Positions 1-5,332 of a DNA stretch of 5,332 bases are shown in pieces. The DNA comes from a virus. Its lineage: Duplodnaviria; Heunggongvirae; Uroviricota; Caudoviricetes. The first letter of the stretch is position 1, and every line of letters starts with the position of its first letter. Below the pieces are notes generated by a model. It saw nothing but the letters and a program-made list of their open reading frames with translations, made no database searches and was not told the DNA's origin. The stretch spans positions 1-5,332 of IMG/VR virus record IMGVR_UViG_2537561977_000027, one strand, 5' to 3'. Both the position numbers and the translations under genes were made by a program.

Positions 1-1005
1 TTAATCCCCCGTGGACACTGCGTGGACACTCACGCCACCTTTCAGCGGATTAAGGGCCACCGCATCCTGCAGGTAATCCGGTGCAAAATGTGCATATGCC
101 ATTGTTTGCTGAATGGTTGCGTGGCCAAGAATCTTCTGAAGCGCAATAATGTTTCCTCCGTTCATCACAAAATGGCTGGCGAACGTATGCCGCAGCACAT
201 GTGCAGCCTGGCCTTTTGGTAAATCGGGCTTAACTCTTTTCAGCGCCAAGCAGAATTCCCGGTACTTCACCTCAAACAAGCCGCCTGTTTCTCTGGTTTT
301 GATCGCCTCACAAACTGCCTGCGAAATTGGCACTGTTCTCTTTCGGCCATTTTTGGTTTCAAGAAACGTTACACGGTTATGAACTATCTGTTCACCACGA
401 AGCTTACAAGCTTCACTCCAGCGCGCCCCTGTGCTTAAACACAAAAGCGCAACACGCCAGTAGTCGCCCTCCAGTGTATCGAGCAATAGCGCTACTTCCT
501 TCTGGGACAGAAAAGCCATTTCTCGTGGGGATACATAAAGAATAGAAATCCCCCTTACCGGATGCTCTGCATCCCAGAGGCCTATTTTCTTCAGTACGGT
601 AAACATTCCGGATAACCGATTCATGTATCTGTTAGCAGATGACGGTTTCAATCCATCAGCTATCTTTTGAGAACGCCACGCGATAATTTTCAGCTTATCA
701 AGATCCACAGCCTGCATATCAGCGCCAAGCTCATTGATTATGTTGCGCAGTTGTTTTCGGTCTTCTTCCGCCTTACGCCTGTGCTGGCCGTGATACATCC
801 ACCACAACTCAAGCAAATCATTTAGCGTTCGACGATCACGGTAGCCCTGTATATATTCCCGCTTTTCAGCGTTCGCCATGATGTAGCGTTCAGTGGCCAC
901 CGCTACCGATTTTTTGTCAAATACCTTACGCACGCGCTTTCCCTTGCGTCCGTTCGGCCTGATGTCCAGCAAATAACGACCATCTTCGAGCTTCTTAATT
1001 GACAT
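1..1005 (-). CDS. int: Tyrosine-type site-specific integrase, P2 Int-like (complete, 334 aa)
   Basis: Long minus-strand ORF. Tyrosine-recombinase catalytic residues are visible in order: R in TGARWSEA, H-x-x-R in HVLRHTFASH, and Y in QTMAYAHF. The N-terminus MSIKKLEDGRY and C-terminus SVHAVSTGD resemble P2 Int as I remember it. The ORF-track start at 1020 is a TTG; the in-frame ATG at 1005-1003 has GGAGGG about 7 nt upstream and is the more likely start. Stop TAA is the reverse complement of positions 1-3. Confidence 0.9.
   Translation of the reverse strand: MSIKKLEDGRYLLDIRPNGRKGKRVRKVFDKKSVAVATERYIMANAEKREYIQGYRDRRTLNDLLELWWMYHGQHRRKAEEDRKQLRNIINELGADMQAVDLDKLKIIAWRSQKIADGLKPSSANRYMNRLSGMFTVLKKIGLWDAEHPVRGISILYVSPREMAFLSQKEVALLLDTLEGDYWRVALLCLSTGARWSEACKLRGEQIVHNRVTFLETKNGRKRTVPISQAVCEAIKTRETGGLFEVKYREFCLALKRVKPDLPKGQAAHVLRHTFASHFVMNGGNIIALQKILGHATIQQTMAYAHFAPDYLQDAVALNPLKGGVSVHAVSTGD
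11..30. repeat. Direct repeat GTGGACACT x2 (11-19 and 22-30) inside the integrase 3' end; possible Int arm-type binding site
   Basis: Exact 9-bp direct repeat read from the sequence, 11 bp centre to centre, at the int 3' end where the phage attachment site is expected just beyond the window edge. It also encodes a peptide repeat (SVH/VST), so it could be purely coding. Confidence 0.3.
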
Positions 1006-1101
1006 TGCGAAGCCCTCCAATGAACCGCTCTACAATTTCTCCAGCCTCTTTCCAGCAATAATCAGACCAGACAAAGAGCAGGTCTAACCAGTTTTCTGGC
1101 C

Positions 1102-1422
1102 TTAGCGGGGTGATTTTTGGTTTGTTTCGGTTGAAACCTGATCGCCCTCCGAATCGAAGAAGCCATCAAGAGAGAGAGGCGGAGCAATCTGCCCCGTCGC
1201 AGCATTAGTTTGATTAAACATCACCCAATCCGAATACTTCCGAAAACGAGGATGATTCAAAATCAGGAGTAACGTTTCTCCAGGTATCATTCTTCCCAAT
1301 ATTTCATAATTTTTGAGATTGTTTTGAGATACCCCCGTCACCTCTTCCATCTCTCTACGTGACAATCCCTCTGCCTCTCGAATCAGGCGAAGTTTTTCTC
1401 CAAGGCTTGATTTATGGATCAT
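1102..1422 (-). CDS. C: Immunity (lysogeny) repressor, P2 C-type small HTH protein (106 aa)
   Basis: Minus-strand ORF between int and the divergent cox gene. N-terminal helix-turn-helix-like segment LSRREMEEVTGVSQNNLKNYE; the C-terminal part (RFRKYSDWVMFNQTNAATGQIAPPLS) resembles P2 C as I recall it. The ORF-track start at 1440 is GTG; the ATG at 1422-1420 is preferred. Stop is the reverse complement of 1102-1104. Confidence 0.75.
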   Translation of the reverse strand: MIHKSSLGEKLRLIREAEGLSRREMEEVTGVSQNNLKNYEILGRMIPGETLLLILNHPRFRKYSDWVMFNQTNAATGQIAPPLSLDGFFDSEGDQVSTETNQKSPR

Positions 1423-1537
1423 ATGTGATCTAAACTCCACACTATTGGGTTACATGTAATACAAAACATTCAAATAGCCAAAATAAGCCTATATAAGCCA
1501 TTTTGGGCCATTTGGCCGAATTAAGGAGATTACCACA
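1423..1537. promoter_or_regulatory. Divergent promoter/operator switch region (Pc leftward for C-int, Pe rightward for cox and early genes)
   Basis: 115-bp AT-rich spacer between divergent C and cox starts. AAGGAG RBS at 1523-1528 precedes the cox ATG. Possible -10 TATATA/TATAAG at 1491-1498. I could not place the -35/-10 hexamers for either promoter with confidence. Confidence 0.6.
1471..1520. repeat. Five-unit direct-repeat array with 10-bp periodicity (candidate Cox/C operator boxes)
   Basis: Reading in 10-mers from 1471: CAAATAGCCA, AAATAAGCCT, ATATAAGCCA, TTTTGGGCCA, TTTGGCCGAA. Each has an A/T-rich half followed by (A/G)GCC(A), in helical phase. P2 Cox is established to bind arrays of direct repeats in the Pe-Pc region; assigning these particular boxes is inference. 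Confidence 0.5.
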
Positions 1538-4368: not shown

Positions 4369-4664
4369 GCACCATCAATCACCAGAAGCTACGCGAACTG
4401 GCATTTGCCCTGCAACGAATGGCAACGCCTCAAAAATTACTGGCATTTCGCGCAATGCTCTCGCCGTCTGCTGTGCTGGCACTGCTGGATGAGCTGGAGC
4501 ACGCCAGAACCACGGCTCCTGCCATTCGCCTGACACTCCATCATGAAATCGCTGATTTCTGTGCGACGTTGGAGGCGCCAGGCGAACCGGAAACGCCGGA
4601 AGCAATACAGCAAGAGCTGCTGCAACGCATTGACAAGGTTTTTGATTTTTTTCTGAACCAGTAA
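4365..4664 (+). CDS. Hypothetical early-region protein (99 aa), acidic helical
   Basis: ATG at 4365 overlaps the upstream stop (ATGA); AAGGA about 9 nt upstream. Last gene before the structured non-coding region. Confidence 0.55.
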   Translation: MSTINHQKLRELAFALQRMATPQKLLAFRAMLSPSAVLALLDELEHARTTAPAIRLTLHHEIADFCATLEAPGEPETPEAIQQELLQRIDKVFDFFLNQ

Positions 4665-4780
4665 GAAACCAGAACATGTACACACAAAAAACCGCTTGCC
4701 ATGCCGCAATCAGTCAGGTTACATTTCCGTTGCATCTCATAAAACGGGGGCCGGGTTTCGCAGCCTGCTGATCAACAAAG

Positions 4781-4810
4781 CGCACAACCGCGCCAGCGGT
4801 TTTTTGTGCG
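4781..4810 (+). terminator. Intrinsic-terminator-like hairpin followed by a T-run
   Basis: Inner stem AACCGC (4786-4791) / GCGGTT (4796-4801) with loop GCCA, then TTTT (4802-4805). Outer arms CGCACA (4781-4786) / TGTGCG (4805-4810) can extend the helix across a T bulge. A second T-run of six follows at 4828-4833. Confidence 0.45.
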
Positions 4811-4861
4811 TACCGCATTGCCGCACATTTTTTCGCATCAGAATTATGGTGGGGCGTACGG

Positions 4862-4891
4862 GGCCGACTTCGGTCGGGCCGGGTTTTCTTT
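4862..4891 (+). terminator. GC-rich hairpin with TTCG tetraloop followed by a U-rich tract
   Basis: GGCCGAC (4862-4868), loop TTCG, GTCGGGCC (4873-4880) with one bulge, then GGGTTTTCTTTG. The interrupted U-tract makes terminator function uncertain; it could instead be a stable RNA structural element. Confidence 0.35.
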
Positions 4892-4987
4892 GTTGACCGG
4901 TACTGCGAACCTCGTACGTCTCGCCACCCACAGTTTCGCAGCTCTGGATGGTGAGTATTCAAAACTTACCAACAAAGAGGCCATACC

Positions 4988-5218
4988 ATGGCAAACCGCA
5001 AACAGCACCGCGCTATCGCGGAGCGTCGTCACATCCAGACTGAAATCAACCGCAGACTTTCCCGCGCATCACGCGTCGCGCAAATCATGCACATCAATAT
5101 GCTGCATGAGCGCAGCCACGCACTATCAAACATTTATTCCGCCTCTGTTTTCAGCTATCTGGCGGATGATCTGCACGAGCTTCAACAGCTCATCCAGCAG
5201 CAAAACAAACTCCATTAA
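4988..5218 (+). CDS. Hypothetical small basic/helical protein (76 aa)
   Basis: ATG at 4988 with AAGAGG at 4974-4979. Arg-rich N-terminus (MANRKQHRAIAERRHIQTEINRRLSRASR), no cysteines. First gene after the structured region. No family recognised. Confidence 0.5.
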   Translation: MANRKQHRAIAERRHIQTEINRRLSRASRVAQIMHINMLHERSHALSNIYSASVFSYLADDLHELQQLIQQQNKLH

Positions 5219-5290
5219 TTCCTGTTCCGGGCCTTTCCTGCACCTTGCGGCGGGAGGCCTTCGCACATCTGTAACAAGAGGATTGCCGCA

Positions 5291-5332
5291 ATGATTCTCG
5301 CCAACGACTTTCTTGAATACCTGCTCAACACA
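5291..5332 (+). CDS. 5' end of a downstream gene, truncated by the window (MILANDFLEYLLNT...)
   Basis: ATG at 5291 with AAGAGG about 11 nt upstream; open to the window end. Only 14 codons are visible, so identity cannot be judged (a replication gene would be expected hereabouts in a P2-like layout, but I cannot confirm it). Confidence 0.3.
   Translation, partial: MILANDFLEYLLNT

Follow-up and report, generated by a model that had tools for sequence, protein, structure and literature searches.

Can the 76-aa gene that begins at position 4988 of this DNA be gated by two alternative hairpins in its leader? The question is raised by a 53-nt segment (4781-4833) of the 5,332-nt stretch analysed here (hereafter the window), in which GTGCG at 4806-4810 can be paired either with CGCAC upstream (4781-4785) or with CGCAC downstream (4822-4826). 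The original prediction took these as two hairpins, each followed by a U-tract, with the geometry of an attenuator or antiterminator. Direct reading of the sequence confirmed the three motifs and the T6 at 4828-4833, as well as the fact that GTGCG has two mutually exclusive partners; the first T-run is present too, with an extent of 4800-4805 and not 4802-4805. As detailed below, the segment very probably covers the last part of an IsrK/seqA-type leader RNA, at its 3′ end, and the first part of the spacer that separates it from a C4/CI-type RNA, within the RNA immunity module of a P88-like prophage, and a two-hairpin attenuator is not supported.

An IsrK-type leader and a C4-type RNA in a P88-like prophage

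The window comes from a P88-like (P2-family) E. coli prophage, whose early region it represents, and carries, upstream of the segment, the following genes:

1-1020, minus strand: integrase
1102-1440, minus strand: HTH repressor
1538-1825: Cox-family protein

Positions 4600-5332 are 92-95% identical to the genomes of phage P88 and related Xuanwuvirus (Peduoviridae, P2-like). The gene order is common to the window and P88, where the 76-aa ORF is labelled "derepression protein" and precedes a replication gene. The region was matched in 1,148 of 5,426 complete E. coli genomes; the allele of the window is rare, since only 6 of these 1,148 genomes reach at least 95% identity.

All Rfam models were searched and two matches exceeded their gathering scores. 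The isrK model (RF01394) was matched over its full length (model positions 1-77 of 77, 56.9 bits for a gathering score of 50) and so was the C4 model (RF01695; positions 1-87 of 87, 77.8 bits for a gathering score of 45). A match to the TtnuCD11 snoRNA (20.4 bits for a gathering score of 70) was dismissed as chance. The resulting organization is as follows:

4696-4725, plus strand: promoter-like site TTGCCA-18-TACATT (consensus scan)
4732-4806, plus strand: IsrK/seqA-type leader RNA, with two 5′ hairpins, a single-stranded linker and an intrinsic terminator (Rfam RF01394)
4786-4805, plus strand: hairpin 1, intrinsic terminator AACCGC-GCCA-GCGGTT (4786-4801) with its U-tract at 4800-4805 (terminator scan)
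4812-4841, plus strand: remaining IsrK-C4 spacer, the 5′ leader of the C4 precursor, holding CGCAC (4822-4826) and the second T-run (4828-4833)
4842-4931, plus strand: C4/CI-type antisense RNA (Rfam RF01695)

The isrK match lies directly 5′ of the C4 match, on the same strand and behind the promoter-like site. This adjoining pair was also found in P88, Stx phages, ST64B, a Yersinia phage and P4, where the isrK model matches the seqA region. The promoter-like site ends 7 nt 5′ of the IsrK start, and the start that it predicts is the first base of the IsrK match. It was found again in one relative (L002), and other phages carry promoter-like hexamers at the equivalent position. It is the positional analogue of P4 PLE and P1 P51b, with a putative promoter function suggested by the sequence.

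Hairpin 1 has a stem of 6 bp, including 4 G-C pairs, and a loop of 4 nt followed by T6 (fold of -8.4 kcal/mol). It corresponds to the terminal stem-loop of the Rfam isrK consensus structure and its stem pairs covary in a 40-sequence alignment. Hairpin 1 is a genuine, conserved IsrK terminator, the counterpart of P4 t1 and of the leaky Gifsy-1 IsrK terminator. Folding of the whole leader (4726-4845) was uninformative, with z = 0.0.

Two small peculiarities of the window were observed in this leader. The terminator U-tract (4800-4805) is T6 in the window and T7 in the four fetched relatives of its lineage and in nearly all other P88-type variants, a homopolymer difference that may be either real or a sequencing error. 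In addition, the first of the two 5′ hairpins of IsrK (4732-4751) contains non-standard pairs (cmscan ‘v’ marks; GCAUCUC...GGGGGC), while GGGUGC restores an A-U pair there in three of the four fetched close relatives and in nearly all P88-type variants.

The upstream pairing is a conserved helix bridging the U-tract

GTGCG had been thought to close the terminator hairpin ahead of the first T-run. It sits 3′ of that T-run, and the core terminator (4786-4801) is complete without it. The upstream pairing itself, by contrast with this assignment, stood up well. Its two arms are:

4781-4785, plus strand: 5′ arm CGCAC (covariation; an extra G.U pair of G4780 with U4811 is possible)
4806-4811, plus strand: 3′ arm GTGCGU, the segment common to both pairings

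In the MFE structures (RNAfold), CGCAC and GTGCG form an outer helix around hairpin 1 with a looped-out UUUU, here called the clamp. Among 222 module instances collected, which reduce to 58 distinct terminator regions, a pairing of at least 4 bp between bases 5′ of the terminator stem and bases 3′ of the U-tract was present in 95% of the 58 variants. The arms fall into about ten unrelated sequences, for example GCGCAC/GTGCGT, GCGCAT/ATGCGT, CGATAC/GTATCG, GCGACAG/TTGTCGT, GCGTAC/GTACGC and GAGCGATAT/ATATCGTTT. In the 40-sequence alignment, changes on both sides occurred at five of the six clamp pairs and 83% of cells were paired. The covariation score of the counted structure (clamp and terminator, 12 pairs) was 0.362 compared to at most 0.124 when the partners were slid, and none of 500 shuffles reached it. 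Equivalent clamps can be read in P4 (GCGACA/TGTCGC), Gifsy-1 (CGACAG/TTGTCG) and P1 (CGGACA/TGTCCG). The Rfam isrK model ends at the U-tract and the clamp lies outside the curated structure. As judged by these alignments, the upstream pairing is a genuine RNA helix, conserved by compensatory changes across the sampled family. Since it bridges the U-tract, it would form only after read-through and cannot act as an antiterminator of hairpin 1.

The same topology bears on the proposed attenuator. The shared bases (4806-4810) are not part of the stem (4786-4801) and come after the U-tract (4800-4805). They are transcribed after the U-tract, so that termination at hairpin 1 cannot be affected by their choice of partner. 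Only a downstream hairpin could be, and the clamp, made earlier and more stable, would pre-empt it.

The downstream pairing is weak and specific to one lineage

The downstream pairing (hairpin 2) joins UGUGCG (4805-4810) to CGCACA (4822-4827) and is followed by U6. Its fold scores -6.2 kcal/mol with a loop of 11 nt, and shuffling its 23 nt gave a fold at least as stable in 8% of cases. Although the U6 is present, hairpin 2 (4805-4833) does not show the stable GC-rich stem and short loop that, next to a U-tract, characterize an intrinsic terminator. It does not appear in the list of the terminator scan, which is limited to loops of 3-8 nt. In transcripts ending at 4827 or 4833, the pair probability of hairpin 2 was 0.005-0.007 versus about 0.95 for the clamp.

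Conservation gave the same picture. CGCAC is present at the equivalent of 4822-4826 in all four fetched relatives of the window lineage and is confined to that lineage. In 14 of 16 distinct P88-type spacer variants it is replaced by CACGT, which turns the central C-G pair into C.A and two other pairs into G.U, and no compensatory change was found at any pair of hairpin 2 among the 16 variants. With its centre broken in this way, conservation of hairpin 2 in register among P88-type relatives was rejected. Hairpins formed out of register in these relatives (-2.3 to -5.7 kcal/mol) were no better than those of shuffles. That the 3′ arm pairs with the downstream spacer throughout the family was rejected too: across all lineages, complementarity to the phage's own spacer (3.88 nt) was the same as to the spacers of other phages (3.88 nt), without covariation. 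Thus, of the two hairpins that an attenuator would require to be conserved or to covary, the upstream one is conserved and covaries whereas the downstream one is not conserved.

A 5-mer with reverse-complement partners on both sides and adjoining T-runs occurred in only 0.5% of block-shuffled windows. What makes it rare is the terminator, together with the outer helix and the T-run at 4828-4833. The second pairing, weak and specific to one lineage, is a coincidence or by-product in a spacer rich in CGCA motifs. CGCA occurs four times in 60 nt (at 4781, 4814, 4822 and 4834), so that GTGCG has several possible partners, including a mini-hairpin UGCG-UAC-CGCA (4 bp, -2.0 kcal/mol) and CGCAU past the second T-run. 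A related CGCAC(A) motif was also noticed just 5′ of C4 in several lineages, irrespective of the clamp-arm sequence.

The C4-type RNA is complementary to sites on both sides, one over the ribosome-binding site

If not two hairpins, what could control the 76-aa gene? Two segments of the C4 RNA find complementary sites in the same transcript:

4756-4763, plus strand: b1-type target site TTTCGCAG, in the loop of the second 5′ hairpin of IsrK, complementary to C4 4903-4909 (CUGCGAA)
4773-4780, plus strand: a1-type target site CAACAAAG, abutting the clamp 5′ arm within the IsrK linker and complementary to the C4 loop (4888-4895)
4888-4895, plus strand: C4 hairpin loop, CUUUGUUG
4934-4941, plus strand: downstream b-type target site TTTCGCAG, complementary to C4 4903-4909
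4970-4980, plus strand: downstream a-type target site CAACAAAGAGG, complementary to the C4 loop and overlapping the Shine-Dalgarno sequence of the 76-aa gene
4988-5218, plus strand: 76-aa gene, the controlled gene, for a P4-epsilon-like ‘derepression’ protein and putative antirepressor (Pfam PF25738)

Both C4 segments are exposed and one of their targets lies over the ribosome-binding site of the next gene, as expected of a C4 RNA. Read from the sequence, 11 bp including two G.U pairs can form between 4970-4980 and the C4 loop. The mature C4 5′ end is probably G4848, because the annotated P1 C4 RNA begins at the equivalent G. The 76-aa product matches the P4-epsilon-like Derepression family (PF25738) with 32.7 bits for a cut-off of 27.

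Target sites were aligned for the window and 35 distinct P88-type relatives (36 variants). For the a-type sites, cognate and non-cognate values were 8.7 versus 4.2 nt for the IsrK copy and 8.75 versus 4.65 nt for the Shine-Dalgarno copy; for the b-type sites they were 7.4 versus 4.3 nt (IsrK copy) and 7.4 versus 3.7 nt (downstream copy). The C4 segment, the IsrK site and the downstream site therefore vary together, a three-way covariation observed over the 36 variants. Ten C4 loop types were found, each fitting its own IsrK site and its own Shine-Dalgarno site, while the second (b) site has 7 variants, reducing to about five core sequences. The a and b types occur in recombinant combinations, as in L080, which mixes the types of L038 and L078. 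Such specificity types (10 loop variants reshuffled with 7 second-site variants) likely define heteroimmunity groups among prophages. The Rfam model c4-a1b1 (RF03163) gave no match in the window at E<=1, though the complementarity is evident; in P4 and two other phages it scored 38-46 bits, just below its gathering score of 46.7.

Identity drops to 80-90% in the IsrK/C4 region (4732-4990; loci L002-L081), well below that of its flanks, and does so even in phages whose 76-aa proteins are 97-100% identical; the differences cluster in the three copies of each specificity site.

With respect to the 76-aa gene, one part of the original prediction holds, namely that a regulatory leader with a genuine intrinsic terminator lies upstream. 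The other part, a two-hairpin switch, does not, and gating by antisense pairing of C4 to the ribosome-binding site appears the more plausible mode.

Further features of this region were noted. A conserved AUG in AAUUAUGG (4846-4896), which is the orf45 start in Gifsy-1, opens an ORF of only 16 codons in the window, ending inside the C4 loop. Since this ORF stops 90 nt 5′ of the 76-aa gene, a Gifsy-1-like translational coupling is unlikely in the P88-like phage of the window. The 3′ strand of the C4 closing stem, CUCGCCA (4920-4926), can alternatively pair with a trailer UGGUGAG (4949-4955), placing the b-type target in a loop. Other lineages show this pairing too, a few compensatory changes included (CCACCG/CGGTGG, TCGCCA/TGGCGA and, in P4, GCTATCGCC/GGCGATAGC), and in many relatives UUUUC follows; the pairing may correspond to the Gifsy-1 alternative structures or to P4 t4.

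Public CDS annotations overlie the isrK/C4 RNAs: P88 has a ‘hypothetical protein’ there (L001, 5033-5221, minus strand), phiSTEC1575-Stx2k a ‘peptidase’ (L082, 241-1392) and ST64B a ‘transcriptional regulator’ (L084, 247-1386). The 5′ parts of the CDSs annotated over isrK/C4 are probably mis-called, the true ORFs beginning past the C4 target site; as a consequence for annotation, ORFs called over the IsrK/C4 region are probably spurious.

The second T-run and alternative readings of the segment

A T5-T7 run is found in 18 of 18 distinct P88-type spacers (35-36 nt) and in none of 32 other spacers (23-27 nt), nor in P4, P1 or Gifsy-1. As read from these spacers, the second T-run belongs to an insertion, about 11 nt long, that is found only in the C4 5′ leader of P88-type phages. 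A general need for it in C4 maturation was rejected, since all the 23-27-nt spacers, P1, P4 and Gifsy-1 do without. Its strict conservation within P88-type spacers is not accounted for by the IsrK/C4 model, and two of the alternatives that we considered give it a role. In one, hairpin 2 would be a conditional second terminator restricted to the lineage of the window, forming only if the clamp is prevented (e.g. by C4 or another factor on the a1 site) and providing a two-state stop of read-through before the C4 gene. The two pairings are indeed mutually exclusive and only 2-4 kcal/mol apart in total (-15.5 to -17.6 versus -13.5), the a1 site (4773-4780) directly adjoins the clamp 5′ arm, and the spacer with CGCAC and the second T-run is unchanged in all but one of the four fetched close relatives, that one differing by one loop base; the overall configuration is also rare in shuffles, as mentioned above. 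However, the downstream partner is missing, without compensation, from the 14 P88-type variants carrying CACGT and also from every shorter-spacer lineage, P4, P1 and Gifsy-1. The weak stem and 11-nt loop, unlisted by the terminator scan, and the very low probability of hairpin 2 as the U-tract emerges point the same way. The clamp partner, being transcribed first, would be kinetically favoured too, and the complementarity of C4 to a1 ends at G4780 without entering CGCAC. We consider such a switch quite unlikely.

Alternatively, the P88-type insertion could have created an internal sigma-70 promoter whose spacer is the second T-run, with TTGCCA/TTGCCG (4818-4823) as -35 and AATTAT (4842-4847) as -10 elements. 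The commonest relative carries TTGCCA-17-AATTAT, with 9 of 12 matches and a 17-bp spacing set by the insertion, and this is one of only 2 promoter-like sites in 340 nt (0.1 expected). The window, though, has TTGCCG with an 18-nt spacer (8/12) that the scan did not report, and other variants have TCGCCA. Moreover, a start 6-8 nt past AATTAT falls in the 5′ strand of the C4 closing stem, whereas mature P1 C4 begins right after AATTAT; since the implied transcript could not form C4, we rate this promoter low, as very unlikely. The CGCAC...GTGCG repeat might also act on the other strand or as DNA, terminating transcription on the minus strand or in both directions, or binding a protein as a palindrome. 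The scan does list a minus-strand terminator-like site (4794-4779) with the tail TTGTTGATCA, but this tail coincides with the hypervariable a1 site and most variants have no T-rich sequence there, which led us to reject the minus-strand terminator. No credible convergent minus-strand gene was identified: overlapping minus-strand ORFs exist, and the one annotated in P88 overlaps C4 and looks spurious. The arms, 20-26 bp apart, covary freely, which fits an RNA helix better than an operator, and we find this last reading extremely improbable.

A proposed mechanism

For the IsrK/C4 reading, the elements described above suggest the following sequence of events. Transcription would start around 4732 from the promoter-like site (4696-4725), and a fraction of the transcripts would stop at the terminator (4786-4805), yielding an IsrK-like RNA of about 74 nt. 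The remainder would read through, and the emerging GTGCG (4806-4810) would pair back to CGCAC (4781-4785), clamping the hairpin base across the looped-out U-tract. In P1, RNase P releases the C4-type RNA from a longer precursor; the C4 RNA of the read-through transcript studied here would presumably be excised by RNase P as well, as in P1 and P4. Processing of the P4 CI RNA from its precursor is summarised in PMC4825925.

Once released, the C4 loops could bind their sites over the Shine-Dalgarno sequence of the epsilon-like gene and block its translation, the genes behind being affected via polarity. They could also pair with the copies of these sites in IsrK, which, by analogy with P4 t1, might increase termination at hairpin 1 and exert feedback on C4 synthesis. 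The layout is that of P4 t1: the terminator sits between the leader promoter and the antisense-RNA gene, and the a1 site (4773-4780) ends 5 nt 5′ of the stem at 4786, P4 being alike. Work by Briani, Ghisotti and Deho in 2000 reportedly placed P4 t1 between PLE and cI and found that CI RNA and seqA enhance termination at t1. In our thermodynamic modelling of the nascent RNA, hairpin 1 had a probability of about 0.9 whether or not the C4 target sites were blocked in silico; the modelling gave no indication of how C4 binding might act on this hairpin, and an upstream antiterminator competing with hairpin 1 is thus unsupported. The effector is likely a trans-acting antisense RNA binding beside the terminator and not an alternative hairpin. 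Free IsrK, for its part, could titrate C4 or remodel the long RNA in a Gifsy-1-like manner; the remodelling of the long RNA by IsrK in Gifsy-1, on which this analogy is based, is described in PMC4825925.

The clamp is the only feature that may exceed current descriptions, as a small addition to a known architecture. It was seen in all C4-type leaders examined (P1, P4, Gifsy-1, Stx phages and P88-like phages), and one may speculate, at rather long odds, that it is a functional element marking read-through transcripts. It might then shield the U-tract from Hfq, offer RNase III or RNase E a processing site between IsrK and the C4 precursor, or tune the effect of C4 on termination. In the lineage of the window, whose spacer has gained a perfect second partner and retains a U-tract, it could toggle with a back-up terminator as a two-state switch.

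The phage joins a P2-type C repressor/Cox switch (1-1825) with a P4-type RNA immunity module over a P4-epsilon-like protein (4988-5218). In P4, epsilon inactivates the P2 repressor. By analogy, this suggests that the RNA module of the P88-like phage might control an antirepressor targeting its own C protein or that of a related phage.

Comparison with known systems

Classical attenuators (trp leader, T-box, riboswitch platforms) share with the window a leader terminator, read-through that sets downstream expression, and mutually exclusive pairings. The alternative helix of an attenuator recruits bases from the terminator stem, so that one structure is chosen before the U-tract is transcribed. 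In the window, unlike in these systems, the shared bases follow the U-tract and the second helix is not conserved.

Closer parallels are found among phage immunity regions. In the P1/P7 immI operon (P51b - a1 b1 - c4 - a2 b2 targets - icd - ant), as in the window, C4 has two loops complementary to upstream and downstream sites, the downstream site lies over the ribosome-binding site of the first gene, and the output is an antirepressor (as annotated). A hairpin followed by ATTTTT, with its clamp, is also present. The P1 hairpin differs by its 12-nt loop and shorter U-run, and P1 adds a C1-controlled promoter upstream.

The Salmonella Gifsy-1 region (isrK - STnc1160 (orf45) - anrP) has a promoter, IsrK with a leaky terminator and the clamp, a C4-like RNA and an antirepressor-type gene; the window shares these RNA families and their order, with a putative promoter and a presumably leaky terminator. 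Experiments in Gifsy-1 demonstrated read-through of the IsrK terminator, alternative long-range structures and processing of STnc1160, its C4-like RNA (Hershko-Shalev et al. 2016, PMC4825925). The two differ in that a 45-codon ORF over the Gifsy-1 C4-like RNA is translationally coupled to anrP, whereas the equivalent ATG of the window opens 16 codons only. The Gifsy-1 spacer is 25 nt without a second T-run, and the controlled protein is of an unrelated family.

The P4 immunity region (PLE - seqA - t1 - cI/CI RNA - seqC - left operon with epsilon and alpha) resembles the window in several respects: both the isrK and C4 Rfam models match, an intrinsic terminator comes right after seqA with a clamp across its U-tract, targets lie on both sides of the antisense RNA, and the controlled operon encodes an epsilon-type derepression protein (Pfam match and annotation). 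The seqA/seqB/seqC target logic of P4 matches the site arrangement of the window (PMC4825925). In P4, however, about 107 nt without a second T-run separate the terminator from CI, compared to 35 nt in the window, and epsilon is a later gene, whereas the epsilon-like gene is the first after the RNA in the window. The host element differs as well, P4 being a satellite and the window belonging to a complete P2-like phage with its own C/Cox switch.

Taken together, the element joins the known IsrK/C4 class (P4 seqA/CI, P1 c4), with a rare specificity allele, and shows a complete P2-like phage combining a protein C/Cox switch with an antisense-RNA immunity module of the P4/P1 type.
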